From Acidobacteriota bacterium (GTDB lineage: Bacteria > Acidobacteriota > Terriglobia > Bryobacterales > Bryobacteraceae): DNA of 64,000 nucleotides. The translations under genes and the position numbers were made by a program. Of this stretch, positions 12,515 through 22,285 are shown piece by piece. The notes under the pieces are model-generated. The model saw only the letters and a program-made list of their open reading frames with translations. It had not been told where the DNA came from and did not search any database. How positions within the stretch are numbered: position 1 is the stretch's first letter; each line of letters opens with the position of its first letter. Where the stretch lies: positions 27,967 to 91,966 of the forward strand of contig JAJYLS010000001.1 in the NCBI GenBank assembly GCA_021787555.1, in the 5' to 3' direction.

Positions 12515-13633
12515 TCACACCGCGTTCAGGAATCCGCCGATCGCCTCCACAATCCGCTCGCTTGCGTGCCCGTCGCCGTAGGGATTGTGCACACGAGCCA
12601 TGCGCCGGTATGCGGCTTCGTCTTCCAGTAGACGCGCGGCTTCGGCGACGATGCGCCGGGGGTCGGTCCCCACCAGCTTGACCGTCCCCGCTTCCACCGC
12701 TTCCGGGCGCTCGGTGGTTTCCCGCATCACCAGCACCGGCTTGCCGAGCGACGGTCCTTCTTCCTGAATCCCGCCCGAGTCGGTGATCAACAGGTGCGCG
12801 CGGCGCATCAAGCCCACAAACGAGACGTACTCCAGCGGTTCGATCAGCACGATGTTCGGCCGTCCGTCCAGGCGCTTCGTCACCGGGTCGAGCACGTTCG
12901 GGTTGCGGTGCACCGGATAGACCACCTGTACATCCGGGCGCTGGGCCAGTGCTGCAAGGGCATCGCAGATCCGTTCAATCCCTTCGCCGAAGCTCTCGCG
13001 GCGGTGCGCTGTCACGGCGATGAGTTTCTTGGAGTCATCCAGCCAGGGCCATTCCGGCCCGCGCAGTCTTCCCTGCCCCAGCGCGCAGGCCACGAACAGG
13101 ACGGCGTCGATGCCGGAATTCCCCGTGACGATGATGCGCTCCGGCGCGACGCCCTCGGCCAGCAGATTGGCGCGTGCCCATTCCGTGGGAGCGAAATGCA
13201 GCGCCGCGAGACGGCCCGTGACCAGCCGGTTCAATTCCTCGGGGAAAGGCCGGGCTAAATCGCCGGTCCGCAGTCCGGCCTCGACATGCGCCACCGGCAC
13301 CCGGCGGTAAAAGGCCGCGAGCGCTCCCGCCATGGTGGTGGTGGTGTCGCCCTGGACCACCGCCATATCGAAGTGTTTGCCGGCGAAAATCGGGTCCAGC
13401 GCCCCGAGCACCCGGGCGGTAATCTGCGCCAGCGTCTGATTCGGCGTCATCAGGTCCAGGTCGTAATCCGGCACGACGCCGAAGCACTCGAGGACTTGGT
13501 CCAACATGGTGCGATGCTGGGCCGTCACGCACACACACACCTCGATCCCGGGCGCCTTGCGCATCTCCCGGATCACCGGGCAGAGCTTGATGGCTTCCGG
13601 CCGCGTGCCGAAGATGAACAGTACCCGCTTCAT
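12515..13633 (-). CDS. wecB: UDP-N-acetylglucosamine 2-epimerase (non-hydrolysing)
   Basis: [20 protein letters not shown]..., ...HVEAGLRT..., ...[28 protein letters not shown] chose the start at M35 of the track ORF (13633), which gives an ATGA overlap with the upstream gene. Confidence 0.9.
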
Positions 13634-14349
13634 CGGTATTTGCCTGTTATCCCGTTCCACCGGACCCGGAGCGGATCCAGAAAGGCCGAAATACCGTGCA
13701 GCAGCCCTACCTTGGTGCCTGCCACATTGTTCCACCGCACCGGCACTTCAATGGCCCGGTAGCCCAATTGCCGGGCGATAAATAGGACCTCTACGTCGAA
13801 TCCGAACCGCTCCAGCGTCTGGCGCGAGAAAATCTCACGTGCCGCGCTCGTCTTGAACAGCTTGAACCCGCACTGCGTGTCGCGAAACGGAAGACCCGTG
13901 GAAGTCCTGACCACCAGGTTAAAGAGCCGTCCTACGGCTTCCCGAAAAAACGGCTGATGGACGCCGATCAGCGACCGGTCTAGCGCCCTCGATCCGATGG
14001 CCACTTGCGCTCCGGCGCGCTCCGCCGCTTGCCACAGCTTGTCGAGGTCCTCGATCGGCGCGGACAGGTCGGCATCGGTAAACAGCGCCCAGTCGCCCGA
14101 GGCCTCCTGCATTCCGTGGCGCACGCTGTACCCTTTACCGCGGTTGCCGGGGTTCCGCAGCACGCGTACGCGCCCGTCCGCCGATTGCGCGGCTTCGACC
14201 GTGTGGTCGCTTGAGCCGTCGTCAACCACCACGACCTCGGCAAAATCCCAGGGCGTCCTCGCCAGGTATGCCAGCACCGTTCTCAACGTCTGCGGCAAAC
14301 GCTGCTCTTCGTTATAGGCCGGGATGATGATCGAGATAGATCGCTGCAA
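13630..14349 (-). CDS. GT2 polyprenol-phosphate glycosyltransferase-like (dolichyl-phosphate glucosyl/mannosyl-transferase type)
   Basis: [19 protein letters not shown]...[12 protein letters not shown]...[15 protein letters not shown]...FTDADLS. 239 aa and soluble GT-A. The start codon is a TTG at 14349, since no in-frame ATG precedes the IIIPAYNE strand. Confidence 0.85.
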
Positions 14350-14458
14350 GGAAAGACCATAATAGCCGATTTCAAGCGGGGGCCAGGAGATGGCACGGAT
14401 TCCTTAAATACCCACTTTAACCATGTAACTCTATATTGCAGATACTAATACACGGTAC

Positions 14459-14722
14459 ATGCCAAAGTTTCACACTTTATGCTTGCAGAAAGCATTTGAT
14501 CGTCTTAACATAGAACAAATGCGGAATGGTGAACGTTCTCAGATGTATCTAACGACCGCTCGTGTAGCCCGCATTCTGGGAATCAATAAGCGAACCTTGC
14601 ATAACTGGATTAAAGCAGGAAAAATTCCGGGCCCCAACGCCAATCCGGACAATGGATATCTCCAATGGACCATGGCGGATGTTGAGGTCGTCCGCAACGT
14701 GCTGATGGAGGAACCGAAGTGA
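14459..14722 (+). CDS. Small helix-turn-helix DNA-binding protein (excisionase/MerR-like HTH)
   Basis: YLTTARVARILGINKRTLHNWIKAGKIPGP is a typical excisionase-type HTH. The stop overlaps the ParA GTG start (GTGA). The true start is uncertain (ATG at 14459, 14519 or 14543). Confidence 0.6.
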   Translation: MPKFHTLCLQKAFDRLNIEQMRNGERSQMYLTTARVARILGINKRTLHNWIKAGKIPGPNANPDNGYLQWTMADVEVVRNVLMEEPK

Positions 14723-15516
14723 TTCGACTGGTGATTGCCAACCAGAAGGGCGGCGTCGCAAAGACTACGACCACCCTAAGCCTGGCGCGCGAATTTGCGG
14801 AGCGCGGCCTCAAGGTGCTGCTGATCGATATCGACCCCCAGGGCTCCATTGGCGCGAGCCTCGGCCTCAAGGCTGCAAACTATTTGTATAGCTTCGTGAT
14901 CTCGAATTACCGCTTCAAGGACTGCCTGGTGGAGGCGCATCCCGGGATCGATGTGCTGTGCAGCAACCGCGAGACCACGGATATCGAGGGCATTCTGACG
15001 CCGCGGACCGGGCGGGAGCTGATTTTCCAGGTCCTGCTGACGCCTGTCGAGAAGGACTACGACGCCGTGATCATCGACTGCCCGCCGGCCATTTCCCTGC
15101 TCCAGAGCTGCGCGGTGATGTATTCGCAGCAGATCCTGATCCCCCTGACGATGGATCCGCTGAGCCTGCAAGGCGCCTACGCCGCGATCCAGACCTCCGC
15201 CACGCTGAACCGGCTTTTCAAAGCGAATATCCAACCGGTGGCGGTGCTGCCGGTGCAGGTGGACCGGCGGTTGCAGATGACCGACGTGATTCTCGACAGC
15301 CTGCAGTCGCTTTCACGCGAGTACAACATTCCCCTGCTCCCGGCCGTGCGCACCGATTCCACGGTACCCAAGGCGACGCGGGCGCGCCGGTTTCTTCTGG
15401 ATTTCGACCCCAAATGCAAAGCTGTGGAAGACTACCGCCTGGTTGCCGAGCAGTTGCTCGAGCACCTCAAAGGACAGTTGAATGAGCGGCAGTTCGCGCT
15501 CCCGGCAGAAGCGTAA
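14719..15516 (+). CDS. parA: ParA/Soj-family partition ATPase
   Basis: Deviant Walker A in VIANQKGGVAKTTTT, then LLIDIDPQGS and the Walker B region YDAVIIDCPP. GTG start. Confidence 0.9.
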   Translation: MIRLVIANQKGGVAKTTTTLSLAREFAERGLKVLLIDIDPQGSIGASLGLKAANYLYSFVISNYRFKDCLVEAHPGIDVLCSNRETTDIEGILTPRTGRELIFQVLLTPVEKDYDAVIIDCPPAISLLQSCAVMYSQQILIPLTMDPLSLQGAYAAIQTSATLNRLFKANIQPVAVLPVQVDRRLQMTDVILDSLQSLSREYNIPLLPAVRTDSTVPKATRARRFLLDFDPKCKAVEDYRLVAEQLLEHLKGQLNERQFALPAEA

Positions 15517-16849
15517 GCTGGAGCCCATCAGCCTCGAAGAACTAGCCGGCACGACCGGGATGTCGGGGTTCTGCACTTTTTTGACGCGGGACGCGTCGGT
15601 GCCGGTTCCTGCGCTGGACCGGCAGGCGGCGGACTCGATCGGCAGCCCGGCCGCCGCGGGGAGTGTGGCCGCACCGCTTGAAGCGAGTGCACTTGAGTCA
15701 GAAGTTGTTGCGTCAACTGCACCTCTTTCAACTGCACCCATTTCAGATGCATCATATTTAAATGCAGTTGAAACAGATGCATCTAAAAGAGGTGCACCTG
15801 TCTTGACTGCATCTGTTTCAGGAGCACCGAGGCTGGCTGTTTCAACTCCTCCGTTGGCGGACCCGCCGACTATCGAATCGAGTGCACCTGATTCAGGCGC
15901 ATCCGATAGCGATGCTGTTGAAACAGGTGCACCTGAACCGAGTGCTTTCGAATTCCGGCGCGAACGCCGCCTCCGCATCCGCGAAGCCGTCACCGTCCAG
16001 GACGGCCATTCGCTCGCCGAACAGGCAGTCTACGACGCCATGTACCGGGCAGGGAAGCTCTACCAGGGAGATTCCCGGATCCTCACTATCGGCCTCCGCA
16101 CCCTGGCCGAGCTTTCCCGCATGGCTTACAGCAACTGCAAATTAAACGTCCGGTCGCTGGTTGCCAAGCTCGCCATCGACGAAAGCCCGGAGTTCAGCTA
16201 TACCGAAGGCCGCACTTACGTCATCTACAGCTTTCGCGAGATCCTCCGGCGGAGGAAAGCCGCCGGCCTTACCCACGTGGTCCGCACGCGCGGCGTGGCG
16301 TTTGTCGATCCGGCTACGGGGAAGGAATTGAGTGCATGTGAATCGAGTGCACCTGATCTACCTGGAAGTGCACTTGCGACATCCATAAGAAGTGCGTCTG
16401 AACCCACTGAATCGAGTGCACTTGCGTCCGGCGCGGATATAAGGAAGAGGCACTTGATGAGCAATTCCGGACAGGCATCGTCGTCGTCCTCCGCCGTACC
16501 CGCTCTGGTGGCGGCCCTCCGCCGCCACATCCCGGACGTCGACGACGACGCGGCCGCGGAACTCTGGCAGCGCTGCATCGACAACGCTCCCGACGCGCGC
16601 ATCGACGAAGTGGTCCACTTCATCGACCTCAAAGCCGGCAAGCCCGGCATCCGCATGCCCCTCGGGTTCCTCCTGACAGCGGTGCCCAAGTGTTTCGCCG
16701 GGGATGCTTTCCGCCAGTTCCGCGCCGAGCGTGCGCGGAGCACGGAAGGGAACCTCGCTCGGGACCGCCTGTTTGCTGACGAGGTCCTCAAGAACCCCGA
16801 AGCCGACGAGGAGCAGCGCCAATGGGCCCGCGAGGTCCTCGGACTTTAA
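15482..16849 (+). CDS. Hypothetical protein: basic N-terminus, low-complexity S/A/P/E repeats, putative winged-helix core (candidate ParB-like or Rep-like partner of ParA)
   Basis: The 455-aa ORF overlaps the parA 3' end by 35 nt. The N-terminus is basic (MSGSSRSRQKRKLEP). Repeated (E/T)S(S/G)AP-type motifs occur. The central region is AEQAVYDAMYRAG...RILTIGLRTLAELSRMAYSNCKLNVRSLVAKL. I recognise no family. Confidence 0.55.
   Translation: MSGSSRSRQKRKLEPISLEELAGTTGMSGFCTFLTRDASVPVPALDRQAADSIGSPAAAGSVAAPLEASALESEVVASTAPLSTAPISDASYLNAVETDASKRGAPVLTASVSGAPRLAVSTPPLADPPTIESSAPDSGASDSDAVETGAPEPSAFEFRRERRLRIREAVTVQDGHSLAEQAVYDAMYRAGKLYQGDSRILTIGLRTLAELSRMAYSNCKLNVRSLVAKLAIDESPEFSYTEGRTYVIYSFREILRRRKAAGLTHVVRTRGVAFVDPATGKELSACESSAPDLPGSALATSIRSASEPTESSALASGADIRKRHLMSNSGQASSSSSAVPALVAALRRHIPDVDDDAAAELWQRCIDNAPDARIDEVVHFIDLKAGKPGIRMPLGFLLTAVPKCFAGDAFRQFRAERARSTEGNLARDRLFADEVLKNPEADEEQRQWAREVLGL
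15686..16422. repeat. Array of GTGCAC-centred short palindromes (possible centromere-like or iteron sites)
   Basis: GTGCAC occurs at 15687, 15792, 15882, 15927, 16347, 16368 and 16416. Extended palindromes are AGTGCACT, AGGTGCACCT (15790-15799), CAGGTGCACCTG (15924-15935) and AAGTGCACTT (16366-16375). The identical 18-mer GAATCGAGTGCACCTGAT occurs at 15875-15892 and 16340-16357, and its first 13 nt recur at 16409-16421. Further TGCA-core motifs (GATGCATC etc.) lie at 15714-15815. Confidence 0.6.
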
Positions 16850-17358
16850 CCCTGCCCGATGAACCGGCTCACCGCGTCGAAATCGTTTTGCAGGGCAAAT
16901 ACAATAGCGCCAATCTTTTCCAGGAAATCGGGGGTGCTGGCGAAGTCGATCGTCAGGCGGCCGGGGGTCAACTCGACGCCCGCCGGCAACTTCTGGAACC
17001 GCGTGCTCACGAGCGCCAGCGCGCGCTTTTCCTGGGCCACCCCGACGTGCCGCGCCCGGGCCGCAGCCACCAGGGCATCCAGGCGTTCCTCCACCCGCGT
17101 GCGCCGGGCCATTTCCCGCGAATATTCGCCGGTCTCGCGCAGCGATTGGAGTTGCCGGACCAGATCCGCCCGGCCGCACACCAGGGTGTTCCCGGGGCCT
17201 GGGGTCGCCTCGCAGCGCCGCATGATGCGCCAGGCGACGGTTTTCGACACCCCCAGCGTCTCTTCCAACGTCCGCCGGTCCACCCACTCGGCGGAAAGCT
17301 CCTGGAAAACCTCGATCGCCTCGGTAATTCGATGAAAATACGCCGGGGTTGCTGGCAT
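16846..17358 (-). CDS. Hypothetical protein with probable HTH
   Basis: The start is at M7 of track ORF 16846..17376 (MPATPAYFHRITEAIEVF...). The segment RRTLEETLGVSKTVAWRIMRR looks like an HTH. The gene is divergent from the recombinase gene, and its stop overlaps the convergent ORF by 4 nt. Confidence 0.5.
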   Translation of the reverse strand: MPATPAYFHRITEAIEVFQELSAEWVDRRTLEETLGVSKTVAWRIMRRCEATPGPGNTLVCGRADLVRQLQSLRETGEYSREMARRTRVEERLDALVAAARARHVGVAQEKRALALVSTRFQKLPAGVELTPGRLTIDFASTPDFLEKIGAIVFALQNDFDAVSRFIGQG

Positions 17359-17424
17359 GGCGCGATGATAGCACAATCCATCATGTAGTGGAACGATCGT
17401 TTCACATCAAGAGAAAAATATTTC

Positions 17425-17442
17425 CGATAATGATTGTTATCG
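17425..17442. promoter_or_regulatory. Inverted repeat CGATAA-N6-TTATCG in the divergent promoter region of the recombinase gene
   Basis: The repeat was seen directly. It lies in the AT-rich 99-bp gap between 17358 and 17458, immediately upstream of a TATACT hexamer (17445-17450) that is 7 nt from the ATG. Confidence 0.35.
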
Positions 17443-17457
17443 TATATACTTGTTCCG

Positions 17458-18366
17458 ATGCATCCTGCGGCGCTGGTTTCAGCTCCCGACGCGGTCGTGC
17501 GCTTGAAACGGCTGGTCCTGGACAGCCTGCGCTCGGAGCATTCCCGCCGCGCGTACCTTCACGCCCTGGATGACTTCTTCGGATGGGTTCAGTCCGAACC
17601 ACGCGGTCCTTTCGGCCGGGCCCTGGTGCAGGAATACCGGGCATATCTCGAACAACTCAATCTGGCGCCCTCCACCATCAACGTGCGGCTTTCGGCGCTG
17701 CGGAAACTGGCTTCCGAAAGCGTCGAGAACGGCTATCTGGACGGCGCTACGGCACAAGCGGTGATGTCGCTGAAGAGCGTCCGGCAGGCGGGCATCAGGG
17801 CAGGGAACTGGCTCACGCGGGAACAGGCGCAGTCGCTGCTGGCGCAGCCGGATGCCGCGACCCTCCGCGGCAAGCGTGACCGCGCCATTCTGGCGCTCCT
17901 GGTCTGCTGCGGCCTTCGGCGCACCGAAGTGGCGGGGCTGCGCGCCGGGGACATTGTCCAAAGAGAAGGCCGCTGGGTAATTGCCGACCTCGCAGGCAAA
18001 GGCGGCCGGCTGCGCACGGTGCCGGTGCCGGCGGCGGTCAAGGCCGCGGTGGATAGCTGGACCGCGGCCGCGGGAATCCGCAGCGGCCCGATCTTCCGCT
18101 CCACCCGGTCAGCGGACGCCGGTCGCGAAGCACCGCTCACCGGCAAGACGATCTGGCACGTCGTGGCGAAATATGCGGCGCAAATCGGCGTGCGCGACCT
18201 GGCGCCGCACGATTTACGCCGGACATGTGCCAAGTTGTGCCGGGCGTCGGGTGGAGAACTCGAGCAGATCCAGTTTCTGCTCGGCCACGCCTCCATCCAA
18301 ACTACGGAGCGATACCTCGGCAGCCGCCAAAACCTGGTACAGGCCGTCAATGACAACTTGCTTTAG
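17458..18366 (+). CDS. Tyrosine recombinase / phage-integrase-family protein (XerC/D-like)
   Basis: N-terminal SAM-like core-binding domain (SEHSRRAYLHALDDFFGW...STINVRLSALRKL). The catalytic domain has RDRAILALLVCCGLRRTEV, ...HDLRRTCA... and LLGHASIQTTERYLG (R..HxxR..H..Y signature). Confidence 0.9.
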   Translation: MHPAALVSAPDAVVRLKRLVLDSLRSEHSRRAYLHALDDFFGWVQSEPRGPFGRALVQEYRAYLEQLNLAPSTINVRLSALRKLASESVENGYLDGATAQAVMSLKSVRQAGIRAGNWLTREQAQSLLAQPDAATLRGKRDRAILALLVCCGLRRTEVAGLRAGDIVQREGRWVIADLAGKGGRLRTVPVPAAVKAAVDSWTAAAGIRSGPIFRSTRSADAGREAPLTGKTIWHVVAKYAAQIGVRDLAPHDLRRTCAKLCRASGGELEQIQFLLGHASIQTTERYLGSRQNLVQAVNDNLL

Positions 18367-18502
18367 TCATGAGACCTCAGCTCGCGCGTGAAGGCGGCGC
18401 GGTCCGAACCTGCGCCGCGCCGGGGTGCATATGCTATCATCCTTTTTCCCCGATGGAACGTGTGTCCTCATACGCCGCCCCAGGCAAGTTCGCGGCCATG
18501 CC

Positions 18503-19684
18503 ATGAAGCTGCTTTGGGTGAAAACGGATTTTCTGCACCCGGCGACCCGCGGGGGACAGATCCGGACACTGGAAATGCTGCGCCGGCTCCACGCCCGCCA
18601 CACGGTCCACTACGTCGCGTTCGAAGATCCGGCCCATCCGGAAGGTCCGGCGCGGGCGCCGGAGTATTGCTCGTTCGCCTATCCGATCCGGTACCGGGTG
18701 GCGGCCAAGAATAGCTGGGCGTTTGGCGCTCAATTGCTCCGCGGGCTTTTCGATCCCGTACCGGTAGCCGTGAGCCGCTACCGGTGCGGCGCCATGCGGC
18801 GGAAAATTGCGGAGCTGACCGCCCGGGAGTATTTCGATTCCATCGTCTGCGATTTCCTTTTCCCGACGCCCAATATGCCGGACCTTGATTCCTGTGTGCT
18901 GTTCCAGCACAACGTGGAGTGGACCATCTGGCAGCGCCACACGGAGAACGCCTCCGACCCGTGGCGGCGCTGGTACTTCAGCATGCAGGCGCGCCGCATG
19001 TTTGCCTACGAGGGCGCCGTGTGCCGGAAGGTGAAGAAGCTGATTGCGGTTTCGGAAAACGACGCCGCGATCTTCCGCAAGCAGTACGGAGCCGCGGCGG
19101 TGGCGCCGGTGCCCACGGGCGTCGATCTGGATTATTTTGCGCCGCCCGCGTCGCCGGCTCCCACCGCGGACCTCGTATTTCTGGGCTCAATGGATTGGAT
19201 GGCCAACGAGGACGCCATGTTGTGGTTTGCCGCCGAGGTGCTGCCGCTCATCCGGCGCGCCCGCCCGGATTGCCGCCTGGCGATCGTCGGCCGAAGGCCC
19301 ACGGCGCGGATCCGCGACCTGGTGCGCGATCCGCTGATCGAGGTGACGGGGACGGTGGTGGATGTGCGGCCGTGGCTGTGGGGCGCAGCGGTGTCGATCG
19401 TGCCGCTGCGGGTGGGCGGAGGCACGCGGCTGAAAATCTACGAAGCCATGGCGGCGCGAGTGCCGGTTGTTTCCACGAGCGTGGGGGCCGAAGGCCTGGA
19501 CGTTTCGCCCGGCGAAAACATCGCGATCGGGGATACGGCCGCGGACCTGGCGGACCGGTGTCTCGCGCTGCTGGATAGTCCGGCGCGGCGCGCGCAGATC
19601 TCCGATGCCGCCCATCGACTGGTCGCGACGCGGTATTCCTGGGATGCCGCGGTGCGCGTTTTCGAGGACCTCTTGCAGGCATGA
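18503..19684 (+). CDS. GT4 (GT-B) glycosyltransferase, 'stp1-like' EPS sugar transferase, paralogue A
   Basis: MKLLWVKTDFLHPATRGGQIRTLEMLRRL... The C-terminus carries PLRVGGGTRLKIYEAMAARVPVVSTSVGAEGL (the E-x7-E region of GT4). It is collinear with 45174..46379. Confidence 0.85.
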   Translation: MKLLWVKTDFLHPATRGGQIRTLEMLRRLHARHTVHYVAFEDPAHPEGPARAPEYCSFAYPIRYRVAAKNSWAFGAQLLRGLFDPVPVAVSRYRCGAMRRKIAELTAREYFDSIVCDFLFPTPNMPDLDSCVLFQHNVEWTIWQRHTENASDPWRRWYFSMQARRMFAYEGAVCRKVKKLIAVSENDAAIFRKQYGAAAVAPVPTGVDLDYFAPPASPAPTADLVFLGSMDWMANEDAMLWFAAEVLPLIRRARPDCRLAIVGRRPTARIRDLVRDPLIEVTGTVVDVRPWLWGAAVSIVPLRVGGGTRLKIYEAMAARVPVVSTSVGAEGLDVSPGENIAIGDTAADLADRCLALLDSPARRAQISDAAHRLVATRYSWDAAVRVFEDLLQA

Positions 19685-21126
19685 AACACGTCTTGTGGGC
19701 CATCGTCCTGCCGGCGCTGGTGGCGCTTGCGGTCCTGCCGCACGGCATCAGCCGCAATCCGTACGACTACGATGAATCCGACTACATGTATGCCGCCCGC
19801 CTGGGCGCATTCGCCAATCATACCGACACGCCCACGCTGCCCCTGGCAGCGTTTCTGCGGATCGGTCTTTCGAGGGGACGCGACAGCCGCGCGCGCTCGG
19901 GTCTTTCCGAGCAGGTCCGCTCCGCCGGCGACGTGGTGCTTTACCGCCACTGGCACGGCCCGCTGTATTACTACTGGCTGATAGCGCTGTCGCGCTGGAA
20001 GGGCGATGAGCATGCCATGCGCGTGTGGATGCTGATGTTGCACGCGCTGACCTTTCTGGCGATTTACTTCGGCTGCCTGTGGGTGCTGCCCGGACAGGCG
20101 GGGCTTTGGACGGCGCGGCTGAGTTCGCTGATCTATCTATTCGACTACACGAATCTCAAAGCGGCGAGCAGCATTTCGCCGCATGCGCTCTTCGTGCTCT
20201 GCTTTGTCGCCAGCCTGCTGGCGGCGGCAAAGACCATCGAGACCGGGAAGCCGCGCTACTGGTACGGGGCGGTGGCGCTGGCCGGGATGGCTTTTTGCAC
20301 GCTGGAAGTGGCGCTGGTGCTGGTGGCCGTCCTGGCGTTGGTTTGCCTGGTGGAACGGCGGAGCGTGTTCGCCGGCTGGGACGCGAAGAATTGGATCCGG
20401 TTTGCCGGCCGCTCGGCGGCGGTGTTTATCGGGGTGGTGCTGCTGACGTGGTCCGGCGCGGTGGTGCGGCTTTCGTTTCTGAAAGCGTACTTTTTCATGG
20501 CGTATCTCGCGGTCTTCCGGCGGGCCCCCTGGGGAGACATAGGATTTATCGAAAGCTGGCGCCTGCGTTTCTCCAGCGCGCCGGTGCAGTGGATCCTGGT
20601 TGCCGGCAGCGTCTTCTTATGGTTCGCACTCCGGCGCAAGGAGAAATTTCCGCGCGCCACGTACCTGTTTCTGCTATACGGCGCGCTGATGCTGCTGGCG
20701 GTGGCGCGGGTGAACAGCGACTCTCTACGCTACATGTCGCCGTATTTCCCGGCGTTCGAACTGTTCGCCGGATTCGTGCTGGCGCGACTGCTGCTACGGT
20801 TTCGCGCTCCGCTGCGCTACACCGCCCTGTGCGCCATCGCTCTTTTGCTCGCTGGATACGTATCTTTGCAATACCGTGAGCATCCGGCGCGCCCCAACAC
20901 GCAGATTATCGCCATGCTCGGCTACGTGCGCGACCACGGGCTTGCGAGCAAGCGCATGCTGGTTCCGCAGCGGCGCTTGCCGGTGCTGCACTATTATTTT
21001 CCCGAGGCCCGGCTGCAAGGGTATGTGGATGAAGTCTCCGCCGCGGAAGCGGCGGCAGGGGGCCAGTTCGACGGCATTCTCGTGCTCGGACGTGAGATTT
21101 GGTACAATGCTTTGGGCAATCCTTGA
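19681..21126 (+). CDS. Polytopic membrane protein, ArnT/PMT (GT39/GT83)-like GT-C glycosyltransferase
   Basis: ATGA overlap with the upstream gene. An early acidic loop (YDYDESDYMYAARL) and YRHWHGPLYYYW are followed by about 11 TM segments. This is the typical layout of dolichyl/undecaprenyl-phosphate-sugar-dependent GT-C enzymes. Confidence 0.65.
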   Translation: MKHVLWAIVLPALVALAVLPHGISRNPYDYDESDYMYAARLGAFANHTDTPTLPLAAFLRIGLSRGRDSRARSGLSEQVRSAGDVVLYRHWHGPLYYYWLIALSRWKGDEHAMRVWMLMLHALTFLAIYFGCLWVLPGQAGLWTARLSSLIYLFDYTNLKAASSISPHALFVLCFVASLLAAAKTIETGKPRYWYGAVALAGMAFCTLEVALVLVAVLALVCLVERRSVFAGWDAKNWIRFAGRSAAVFIGVVLLTWSGAVVRLSFLKAYFFMAYLAVFRRAPWGDIGFIESWRLRFSSAPVQWILVAGSVFLWFALRRKEKFPRATYLFLLYGALMLLAVARVNSDSLRYMSPYFPAFELFAGFVLARLLLRFRAPLRYTALCAIALLLAGYVSLQYREHPARPNTQIIAMLGYVRDHGLASKRMLVPQRRLPVLHYYFPEARLQGYVDEVSAAEAAAGGQFDGILVLGREIWYNALGNP

Positions 21127-22285
21127 GATGCTCAGCACAGTTCTTGTCGTAGTCAGTTCCTTCCTGCTGTTGTACGTTGTGTTTCTCTATCCTGCGCTTC
21201 TGATGTTGCTGGTGCGGCATCGCTCCCGCCCCATCAGGCGGCGCCTCGATCGGCGCAGCGTTTCGATCGTCATCGCCGTGCACAACGGCGCCGCATTCCT
21301 GGCTGAAAAATTACGGTCGGTCCTGGACGTGGATTATCCGTCCGAGCTGGTCGAGGTCATCGTGGTCTCGGACGGCTCGACAGACGACACGGTGTCCGTT
21401 GCGCGGCGATTCGCTCCCCTGGGAGTGCAATTGATGGAGCTTCCGCGCGGCGGCAAATGCAACGCGCTGAATGCCGGGATTGCGCGGGCGCGGGGCGACA
21501 TTTTGCTGTTGACGGATGTGCGGCAGGTTCTGTGTATAGACAGCCTCAAATACATGGTGGAGTGCTTCGCCGATCCATCGGTGGCGGTGGTGAGCGGCGA
21601 ACTGCTGATTCGCAAGGCAACCAGCGCCGACGAGGCGCAGGTCGGGCTGTACTGGCGTTATGAGACCTGGATTCGCAGCCAGCTTGCGAAGATCGATTCC
21701 ATCTTCGGCGCCACCGGCCCGTTTTACGCCATGCGGCGCGAGTTAGCGGTTTCCATTCCCGGCGATATCCTGCTGGACGACATGTATCTGCCGCTGGCGG
21801 CGTTCTTCCGCGGCTACCGGCTGATCGTGGAACCGCGCGCGCGCGCCTACGATTACCCCACCACGCTGCGGACCGAGTTCCGGCGCAAGGTCCGGACGCT
21901 GGCCGGCAATTTCCAGATCCTGCGCGCGTATCCGGATTTGCTGGGAAGGCGGAACCGGATGTGGTGGCACTTCGTTTCCTATAAGCTGGGCCGCCTGCTG
22001 CTGCCATATTTCCTGATCGCGCTGGCCATCGGGAGCGCGGGCCTGGCGGCGCCGTGGTCGTGGGAGATGCTGGCCGGACAGGCGCTGTTCTATGGTGTGG
22101 CCCTGGCCGATTCCGTGGTTCCGGAAGGCTGGCGCATCAAGCAGATTTCCTCGCCCGTCCGGACGTTTGCCGGCCTGATGGTGGCCACGCTCTGCGCCGT
22201 GGCGGTATTCTTCGTCCCGCCGCGCACGCTGTGGAAAGAAACGCGCATTGCCCCTCAAAGCCGGGGCGCACACAGCGGAATGTGA
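21107..22285 (+). CDS. Membrane-anchored processive-type GT2 glycosyltransferase
   Basis: An N-terminal TM is followed by VSIVIAVHNGAAFL...VIVVSDGSTDDT...GKCNALNAGI...LLLTDVRQ, then C-terminal TM helices. The start is ATG 21107 or 21128; the track ORF start at 20876 lies inside the upstream gene. Confidence 0.85.
   Translation: MLWAILEMLSTVLVVVSSFLLLYVVFLYPALLMLLVRHRSRPIRRRLDRRSVSIVIAVHNGAAFLAEKLRSVLDVDYPSELVEVIVVSDGSTDDTVSVARRFAPLGVQLMELPRGGKCNALNAGIARARGDILLLTDVRQVLCIDSLKYMVECFADPSVAVVSGELLIRKATSADEAQVGLYWRYETWIRSQLAKIDSIFGATGPFYAMRRELAVSIPGDILLDDMYLPLAAFFRGYRLIVEPRARAYDYPTTLRTEFRRKVRTLAGNFQILRAYPDLLGRRNRMWWHFVSYKLGRLLLPYFLIALAIGSAGLAAPWSWEMLAGQALFYGVALADSVVPEGWRIKQISSPVRTFAGLMVATLCAVAVFFVPPRTLWKETRIAPQSRGAHSGM

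Follow-up and report, generated by a model that had tools for sequence, protein, structure and literature searches.

Why should the gene that follows parA carry a dense cluster of palindromes inside its own coding sequence? This question is raised by a 64,000-nucleotide stretch of contig JAJYLS010000001.1, hereafter called the window, which belongs to an acidobacterial metagenome-assembled genome (MAG) of 5.91 Mb and 64% GC, obtained from a mine-drainage metagenome and having its relatives among the Bryobacterales/Solibacteraceae. In this window the open reading frame (ORF) directly downstream of parA encodes a protein of 455 amino acids (aa), ORF455, which is also called X here, and its convergent neighbour ORF176 is called Y. 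ParA ATPases are ubiquitous, and the classes of partner proteins that anchor them to DNA are few, namely ParB, the ribbon-helix-helix (RHH) proteins and a few winged helix-turn-helix (wHTH) proteins. An earlier inspection of the window, referred to below as the original prediction, had pointed to GTGCAC-centred palindromes within ORF455 and had proposed that they form a centromere or an iteron array, with the ORF455 product as the binding protein.

We show here that this array is genuine and the only one of its kind in the genome, that selection acts on its DNA and that its gene order with parA is conserved. In our judgement there is about an even chance that the arrays of ORF455 are an intragenic centromere-like site, bound by ORF455 itself and coupling it to ParA.

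GTGCAC sites form two in-frame arrays within ORF455

All seven GTGCAC hexamers reported within ORF455 were found, at positions 15687, 15792, 15882, 15927, 16347, 16368 and 16416, and their extensions into the longer palindromes AGTGCACT, AGGTGCACCT, CAGGTGCACCTG and AAGTGCACTT were recovered as described (Table 1). The same holds for the 18-mer GAATCGAGTGCACCTGAT, which occurs at 15875 and 16340 and the first 13 nucleotides of which recur at 16409. Elsewhere in the window the hexamer is sporadic, as had been noted: 7 of the 17 copies lie within 736 bp, and the other 63 kb contain 10. The chance density had been estimated from base composition at well under one copy per kb, and a genome-wide count had been proposed as a check. 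This count gave 1487 copies in 5.91 Mb, or 0.251 per kb, a frequency about 38 times lower than that of the array stretch. The expected number per 736 bp is 0.185, and the Poisson probability of seven or more copies is ~1e-9, or ~1e-5 when corrected for ~8000 windows. The reported drop in GC content was likewise reproduced, with 0.495 at 15700-15899 against ~0.64 for the genome.

The cluster in ORF455 is the densest GTGCAC cluster of the 5.9-Mb genome. The runners-up (on C507, C446 and C307) hold 4 copies each; they lie in unrelated coding regions without the extended word and were attributed to chance. The extended word RGTGCACYTG is present 25 times in the genome, with 7 of these copies in ORF455, and the tetranucleotide TGCA reaches 10 copies in 276 bp and 4 in 121 bp, compared with 2.8 per kb genome-wide. 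GTGCAC is also the ApaLI site; avoidance or enrichment of a restriction site was considered and rejected, as 0.25 copies per kb against a compositional expectation of 0.34 gives no signal.

The original prediction can be refined in that the GTGCAC sites are not scattered but ordered as two in-frame arrays. Array 1 contains the first four of the hexamers listed above, six other NTGCAN cores and four cores with one mismatch, whereas array 2 contains the last three hexamers together with GTGCAT at 16332 and GTGCGT at 16392. The two arrays thus comprise 7 cores with GTGCAC, 7 more with TGCA and several with one mismatch, amounting to ~20 sites in ~750 bp; besides the units with GTGCAC, about 9 have a TGCA-core or one-mismatch variant. 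The site consensus is roughly GAATC-RR-GTGCAC-YY-GATTC, with TGAAACAGGTGCACCTGTTTCA as a longer ancestral form. An extended half-site, TGAAACAGRTGCA / TGCAYCTGTTTCA, is present in both orientations in array 1.

The half-site TGAAACAGRTGCA, found at 15769-15781, 15808-15820 and 15919-15931 of the window, holds TGAAACA / TGTTTCA words. The canonical chromosomal parS, TGTTNCACGTGAAACA, has such words too, with its halves everted relative to TGAAACAGRTGCA, and the likeness is probably a coincidence.

Selection acts on the DNA word

The layout of ORF455 was derived from an alignment of 27 non-identical full-length homologues, on which the codon statistics are also based. It comprises an N-terminal region of 45 residues, linker 1, a central domain, linker 2 and a C-terminal domain. 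Both arrays coincide with the two linkers, which are variable and rich in repeats and which AlphaFold2 predicts to be disordered. The suggestion that the DNA word rather than the encoded peptide is selected is borne out by codon usage, by conservation across homologues and by the use of words in both orientations.

In the linkers 58-61% of the alanine codons are GCA (61% in linker 1), compared with 5-8% in the three folded parts. The base preceding the alanine codon is a T in 63-64% of the cases in the linkers and in 8-24% in the folded parts, and the base following it is a C in 56-58% versus 7-34%. All GTGCAC hexamers of the 27 genes (170/170) share the codon phase xGT-GCA-Cxx, and tripeptides of the type [SG]A[PL] are spelled in this manner in 165 of 240 cases in the linkers but in none of the 8 cases in the C-terminal domain. 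Where residues vary, the codons differ outside the hexamer only (S=AGT or G=GGT before it, P=CCT or L=CTT after it).

An alignment of homologues had been suggested in order to see whether the nucleotide motif is conserved beyond the protein. It is GTGCAC itself that is retained, not merely the peptide repeats: every homologue keeps it, with 2-6 copies in linker 1 and 2-4 in linker 2, and homologues with at least ~44% identity contain 4-11 copies per full-length ORF, compared with 0-4 in kilobases of flanking DNA. Protein identity to the window is 22% and 33% in the two linkers versus 83-87% in the N-terminus and the winged-helix domain. One homologue (L045) keeps the peptide SSAP but spells it AGTGCGCC in all three copies, a concerted change indicative of co-evolution and not of drift.

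In distant clades the two linkers are occupied by repeats of other words. These words are CGGTGCACCG in L005 (peptide not recorded), GGTACACC in L078 and L081 (encoding GTP), GGTATACC in L079 (GIP, with the rare codon ATA), CGACCATGGTCG in L080 (STMVE), GAAACAGGTssACCTGTTTC in L061-66 (ETGPPVS), AACAACCCCGGTCGTTA in L063 (TTPVV) and ACCTGTAAGCGA in contig G615:C2 (LPVSD). Some of the words are asymmetric and are used on both strands, where they encode different peptides: GGTACACC is read as GTP and GGTGTACC as GVP, and ACCTGTAAGCGA as LPVSD and its complement as SLTGS. The arrays of the window have TGCAYCTG, from the flanking half-site, 5 times on the plus and 3 times on the minus strand, and TGAAACAG twice on each. 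Because asymmetric words are used in either orientation, selection on mRNA or peptide is excluded, which speaks for a reader of double-stranded DNA. Selection of the array word as double-stranded DNA, and not as peptide, is thus strongly supported.

The word is also found outside coding DNA. Contig G615:C2 has an array of the word of its X (period 24, 2.8 copies) in the non-coding DNA between Y and parA, beside an AT-rich stretch, and in L032 a consensus site lies in non-coding DNA upstream of the operon. With the exception of L032, nearly all GTGCAC hexamers outside X in the homologous loci are devoid of the extended consensus.

A predicted winged-helix domain as candidate reader of the sites

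By sequence, ORF455 is neither a ParB (ParB_N plus HTH_ParB, type Ia) nor an RHH protein (type Ib). No sequence match was obtained in Pfam, NCBIfam, PHROG or PDB, the single hit of the PDB profile search having a non-significant E value of 0.4. The central domain, left at a predicted local distance difference test (pLDDT) score of 35-50 when AlphaFold2 was run on the 27-sequence alignment, was resolved with an alignment of 124 sequences (pLDDT 92, predicted template modelling score 0.83) and showed the topology H-beta-H-H-beta-beta. On this confident prediction, the central domain of ORF455 is a winged-helix DNA-binding fold. The best Foldseek matches were wHTH proteins of the MarR/CRP type, and TubR (3m8e), a Rep-DNA complex (5kbj) and AspA (4rs8) were also listed, all of these matches being generic with E values of ~1e-3 to 1e-2.

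The wHTH domain of ORF455 is the best candidate for reading the sites because X alone among the DNA-binding genes accompanies the arrays in every case, the small helix-turn-helix (HTH) gene, ORF176 and the integrase each being missing from some array-bearing loci. It is further favoured because the word of each clade differs along with the predicted sequence of the recognition helix, and because the core ACCTG / GGTnnACC that the clades share fits the conserved parts of the domain. The pairs of helix and word include SNCK[ALS]N with AGGTGCAC, NNCK[AT]N with GGTAYACC, SNCKAA with AAACAGGT and KNAKHN with CCATGGTC. As far as computation goes, the proposal that the 455-aa ORF is the binding protein therefore holds: the wHTH prediction is confident, the word differs with the recognition helix, and the array travels with the ORF455 gene whatever its neighbours.

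The N-terminal 45 residues form a candidate ParA-interaction peptide. In the alignment of homologues its invariant residues include K10, L13, E14, P15, I16, E20 and L21, and a motif of the form basic-K-x-E-P-[IL]...E-[EL]...SFL is present in the ParA-linked members of all clades and missing from two relatives of X that lie downstream of an AAA_22 ATPase. The C-terminal helical domain gave no significant fold match in PDB or BFVD; it is also fused to other N-terminal regions (L012, L013 and L017) and may serve in dimerisation or in the recruitment of a partner.

Gene order around parA

About 60 metagenomic and genomic loci keep the order small HTH gene, parA, X, convergent ORF176 and XerC/D-like recombinase (Table 1). 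The ParA protein is encoded by the first gene of a putative type I partition cassette and matches NCBIfam ParA_partition at 7.5e-26, below the equivalog cutoff, and the ParA-like PHROG at 4.6e-42. The repeated cis site of such a cassette is represented by the two arrays of a DNA-selected palindromic word, a candidate centromere. No ParB gene lies near parA. The sole other ParA of the genome is 28% identical to that of the window, and no paralogue of the module was detected in the genome, ORF455 being single copy. The 35-nt overlap of parA and X and the order kept in ~60 loci suggest that the two genes are co-transcribed.

In most loci (L001-L076) the amino acid identity of ParA is unusually high, at 92-95%. 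In the same loci the values are ~60% for X, ~75% for the neighbouring epimerase and 27-68% for the integrase; this recombinase adjoins the module in many loci, yet it is no better conserved than that.

Table 1. Positions in the window of the parA-ORF455 module, of the elements within ORF455 and of the adjoining genes
Feature	Position	Strand	Remarks
Small HTH gene, 87 aa, excisionase/MerR type	14459..14722	+	Pfam HTH_17 1.5e-8, MerR 1e-6
parA, 265 aa, deviant Walker-A ATPase (KGGVAKTT)	14719..15516	+	Pfam AAA_31 1.9e-39, also CbiA
ORF455 (X)	15482..16849	+	Overlaps parA by 35 nt; directly downstream
N-terminal 45 aa of ORF455, basic, MSGSSRSRQKRKLEPISLEELAGTTGMSGFCTFL...	15482..15616	+	87% mean identity, 25 homologues
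Array 1, linker 1	15680..15952		18 in-frame 15-nt (five-codon) units, strict period
Palindrome AGTGCACT	15686-15693 and 16415-16422		
Palindrome AGGTGCACCT	15790-15799		
Palindrome CAGGTGCACCTG	15924-15935		
Predicted winged-helix domain, coding region	15956..16324	+	Recognition-helix region ...MAYSNCKLNVRSLVAKLAI...; 83% mean identity among homologues
Array 2, linker 2	16325..16432		5 units of 15-24 nt
Palindrome AAGTGCACTT	16366-16375		
Second DNA-constrained element, end of linker 2	16433..16474		AT-rich rare codons; window copy GCGGATATAAGGAAGAGGCACTTGATGAGC, weaker
C-terminal helical domain, aa 335-455	16484..16846	+	pLDDT 85-95, helical bundle
ORF176 (Y), convergent	16846..17376	-	Overlaps X stop by 4 nt; weak Pfam HVO_A0261_N 1.2e-3
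XerC/D-like tyrosine recombinase	17434..18366	+	Pfam Phage_integrase 1.1e-25; NCBIfam XerC 2.6e-34, below cutoff

The stop codon of the small HTH gene overlaps the start of parA (GTGA), and the gene is syntenic in most related loci. Its product matches the NCBIfam excisionase family (2.8e-5) and gives a weak match (0.002, residues 28-87) with the repABC partition RepA; the gene may be a free-standing counterpart of the HTH domain at the N-terminus of type Ia ParA proteins. Two words, CCCACTTTA and TTTCACACTTT, at 14411-14419 and 14468-14478, are placed ahead of the small HTH gene and over the beginning of its coding region. Both recur in nearly all related loci, where the surrounding sequence varies; they may be an operator or a promoter, and the annotated start codon of the HTH gene is possibly wrong. 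An AAGGAAT word upstream of the operon was rejected as a signal, as it is not conserved.

ORF176 is a frequent companion of X, syntenic in most loci, and is a possible wHTH regulator judging from its weak Pfam match. At its convergent position the AAA_22-linked locus L079 and the P0137 locus have a gene of similar size, the likeness being one of size and position. On contig G615:C2 a homologue of ORF176, judged by eye, lies upstream of parA.

AT-rich, rare-codon patches

In the window copy the GC content over 40 nt has its minimum, 0.28, at 15751-15790, within array 1. A second element constrained at the DNA level ends linker 2 (Table 1). Homologues (L018-L048) spell the peptide HIRNRHL at this place as YATATA-RRG-AAT-AGR-MAT-TTA, and among the 27 homologues the block differs from sequence elsewhere in the use of ATA for isoleucine (76% versus 2%), AGR for arginine (98% versus 7%), AAT for asparagine (78% versus 31%) and CAT for histidine (94% versus 41%). 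In distant clades AT-rich, TAAGGA-like patches occur at the matching position. The block might serve for unwinding, as a bending site or as an internal ribosome-binding site; for the last of these the TAAGGA-like sequence was rejected as a candidate, since in most homologues no in-frame start comes after it, although the window and a few homologues have one.

Family spread and genomic setting

At least 155 homologues of ORF455 were found, all of them unnamed and without Pfam domains, and the family comprises about 721 clusters at 50% identity. Its distribution is patchy: of 301 genomes from the order 12 contain a member, and of 401 from the phylum 7 do. Many of the database homologues (P0003, P0055-P0120) are only 255-345 aa long, with 35-73% coverage, and the source assembly's own call (P0003) has 269 aa. 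Gene callers seem to start after linker 1, probably owing to the atypical codons of the array, so that the N-terminal peptide and array 1 are missing from many annotations.

The AAA_22 ATPase genes of the two relatives mentioned above (L079:39-671 and L081:3211-4008) overlap X from upstream, and the X proteins encoded there are devoid of the ParA-type N-terminal motif. The L081 region also contains an integrase and many small same-strand ORFs and is phage- or plasmid-like.

Contig G615:C2 has 55,313 bp and belongs to a genome of two contigs (loci L089 and L093-L095), with Y-parA-X at ~24.5 kb. By Pfam it encodes the type IV secretion system coupling protein TrwB, ArdC, SSB, ParB_N, a RepB-primase domain and an integrase; by eye, VirB4- and VirB10-like ORFs can be added, and the C-terminal end of the integrase is much like that of the window. 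Because G615:C2 carries Y-parA-X amid conjugation genes, the module belongs to the backbone of integrative or conjugative elements. No excision, circularisation or amplification was seen in four metagenome runs, where depth was flat, a weak negative that rests on contigs only.

In the window's own clade the module is flanked on both sides by glycan and envelope genes (12515-14349 and 18425-22285 in the window), and this is so on many independent contigs (L001, L019, L028-L038, L044, L045, L069, L071, L075 and the P0137 locus). The flanking genes encode GT2, UDP-GlcNAc 2-epimerase, a sugar transferase, GT87, beta-helix proteins and Dlt-like AMP-binding, PP-binding and MBOAT proteins. Since the flanking GT2 proteins are only 25-32% identical, the association is with glycan loci generally and not with one orthologous site.

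Discussion

We propose that dimers of the ORF455 winged helix would bind the ~20 sites and coat ~750 bp of their own gene, and that the basic N-terminal peptide of the bound protein would contact the ParA encoded just upstream. The gene would then act as a segrosome by which ParA positions or maintains the DNA bearing the gene. This DNA would be a module derived from an integrative or conjugative element, here residing within a chromosomal glycan locus. We infer that the wHTH domain reads the sites, that the N-terminus of ORF455 contacts ParA and that the outcome is partition or positioning.

Several observations weigh against an intragenic centromere. The copy in the window is chromosomal, with flat depth and no excision joints, and it is not evident why a chromosomal locus should require its own centromere. 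In two relatives the ATPase that accompanies X is of the AAA_22 type and not ParA, and the core function of X is therefore not ParA-specific. Phylogeny confounds the correspondence of word and recognition helix. The AT-rich patches, as well as the succession of DNA-binding domain, site-bearing linker and C-terminal domain, fit an origin equally well, and the wHTH fold likewise matches Rep proteins (5kbj). Finally, a tblastn search detected no homologue of X on 72,556 PLSDB plasmids or 50,697 INPHARED phages.

The arrays may instead be the iterons of a replication origin situated in the gene of its own initiator, with ORF455 as a Rep protein, which we hold to be possible though unlikely. The wHTH would in that case bind the iterons, the AT-rich patch would melt, the C-terminal domain would recruit a helicase or its loader, and ParA would only partition. 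The architecture suits such a role, with sites in frame in a linker between a DNA-binding domain and a separate C-terminal domain, AT-rich rare-codon patches beside the arrays (among them 15751-15790) and the conserved block YATATARRGAATAGR ending linker 2. The AAA_22 ATPase encoded by the overlapping upstream gene in L079 and L081 might act as a loader, and L081 is rich in small same-strand ORFs, as phage and plasmid regions often are. The Rep-DNA complex listed by Foldseek (5kbj) is of the RepA_N type, and an oriV inside repC has been documented (PMC3155836). The 55-kb contig G615:C2 has no classical Rep among the ORFs scanned, only the RepB-primase domain, and it bears an AT-rich stretch with a 3-copy array upstream of parA; its GC skew was discarded as an indicator of an origin, the curve being monotonic and uninformative. 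However, ORF455 resembles no Rep family of Pfam, NCBIfam, PHROGs or PDB in sequence, and its likeness in fold is generic. Some 20 sites spaced by 15 nt and flanking the DNA-binding domain are more centromere-like, as origins usually have 3-7 iterons, and a ParA-specific N-terminal peptide together with the parA overlap is what would be expected of a ParA partner. The chromosomal depth of the window copy, without amplification, and the failure to find the family on known plasmids and phages (PLSDB, INPHARED) count against an origin as well. The coupling to ParA and the ParA-specific N-terminal motif thus favour a centromere over an origin, whereas an origin continues to be suggested by the architecture, the AT-rich patches and the relatives with an AAA_22 partner. 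As far as computation goes, the choice between centromere and iteron array that the original prediction had offered still stands.

Other roles of the arrays are less probable still. That the sites are operators only, by which ORF455 tunes the transcription of parA-X without any part in partition or replication, is improbable in our view, even though sites also occur in the promoter-proximal non-coding DNA of G615:C2 and L032, the best fold matches are MarR-type wHTH repressors, and in type Ib par systems the same repeats serve as operator and as centromere. About 20 sites in 750 bp, spread over both linkers and maintained across hundreds of lineages in spite of the rare codons that they require, go far beyond the need for a roadblock, and the obligate ATPase partner and the conserved N-terminal peptide would be left unexplained; autoregulation is more aptly regarded as a further feature of either a centromere or an origin. 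It is very improbable that the XerC/D-like recombinase or the excisionase-like HTH protein uses the arrays as accessory or core sites. A tyrosine recombinase does lie within 1.6 kb in most loci of the clade, as well as in L081 and G615:C2, and Xer arms of the GGTGCGCATAA type loosely resemble AGTGCACCTGA, but the palindromes have no central spacer of 6-8 bp, which strand exchange needs, and the sites are unpaired and stand in tandem at 15 nt. Moreover, the word is constant while the integrases diverge, array loci without an adjacent integrase exist (L080 and the P0137 locus), and neither flanking att repeats nor excision joints were found; in a search for att-type direct repeats around 14350-18450 the best match, of 17 nt and 88% identity, lies inside genes and was judged to be due to chance. 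An absence of any DNA function, with the (E/T)S(S/G)AP linker arising by repeat expansion or gene conversion or being selected for mRNA properties or translation speed, is scarcely credible. The repeats are in frame, linker lengths differ among homologues, L045 keeps its peptide with another spelling, and rare codons in linkers are a known phenomenon. Nevertheless, the word is present in both linkers of all homologues down to 40% identity while the peptides diverge, its synonymous positions are fixed next to non-synonymous positions that vary, and L045 changed its three copies alike. The asymmetric words on both strands already contradict mRNA or peptide selection, and copies of the word are present in non-coding DNA too.

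Cis-acting sites within the genes of DNA-binding proteins have precedents. In Bacillus subtilis a single parS lies inside spo0J, and in phage lambda, to which other lambdoid O genes can be added, the origin, ori-lambda, lies inside gene O and consists of 4 iterons of 19 bp in one linker, with the gene of the helicase loader P downstream. ORF455 resembles lambda O in having in-frame palindromic repeats in an inter-domain linker, an AT-rich stretch and a specificity that differs between relatives. It differs in that its arrays flank the DNA-binding domain, have a period of 15 nt and follow a parA gene, and there is no relation in sequence or Pfam domains. The RepA_N plasmid initiators (pAD1, pSK41) also have a cis site inside the initiator gene. 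Like these and RepC (PMC3155836), ORF455 has its candidate cis site in the poorly conserved central region of its own gene, along with a predicted wHTH domain. In contrast to them, it is without sequence homology to either, and its copy in the window is chromosomal and has single-copy depth.

The wHTH fold is shared with TubR of the type III system TubR-tubC (3m8e) and with AspA of pNOB8 (4rs8). TubR and AspA recognise centromere repeats, either tandem or palindromic, and assemble into extended nucleoprotein filaments. The motor is the tubulin-like TubZ or, by way of a separate ParB adaptor, ParA. Unlike ORF455, both proteins are ~90-100 aa long, have intergenic centromeres and lack disordered linkers and a C-terminal domain. 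The ParT protein of the Streptomyces coelicolor plasmid SCP2 is a CTP-independent, ParB-like partner of ParA (10.1101/2024.05.08.592561). As in the ParT-parS system of SCP2, where the centromere lies inside the coding sequence of the partner itself (10.1101/2024.05.08.592561), ORF455 may contain its own centromere, here a candidate. ParT is, however, a truncated ParB with a ParB-type HTH and one 18-bp inverted repeat, whereas ORF455 is predicted to be an unrelated winged helix with ~20 sites. In repABC replicons, single parS sites are found inside par or rep genes (PMC9040568).

Thus par genes with a single internal parS, and initiator genes with internal iterons, are already known. What is new is an unannotated wHTH family as partner of ParA, unrelated to ParB, RHH proteins, TubR and AspA; the scale, with ~20 sites making up both disordered linkers around a DNA-binding domain; and the joint change of DNA word and protein within one gene across the family. 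A wider proposal, that there is a large class of self-centromere genes, with specificity co-evolving inside each single gene and one ORF forming a portable cis-plus-trans module that couples DNA to ParA or AAA_22 ATPases, and that this module has been domesticated for the glycan loci of Bryobacterales, seems to us quite unlikely as it stands. On this proposal, the 92-95% identity of ParA would reflect strong purifying selection and would suggest domestication to position or maintain these loci instead of a plasmid.

To the few classes of ParA partners, these results would add an unannotated family of ~721 clusters from little-studied soil Acidobacteriota, the members of which gene callers often truncate. 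The gene is a clean case of dual coding, as ~20 putative protein-binding sites and a protein linker are written on the same nucleotides. The clades change the DNA word and keep the architecture fixed, so that the co-evolution of specificity and the constraints of overlapping codes can be tested by recoding. The module may also be a source of parts, for partition or replication, from which genetic tools for Acidobacteria could be built; few such tools exist.

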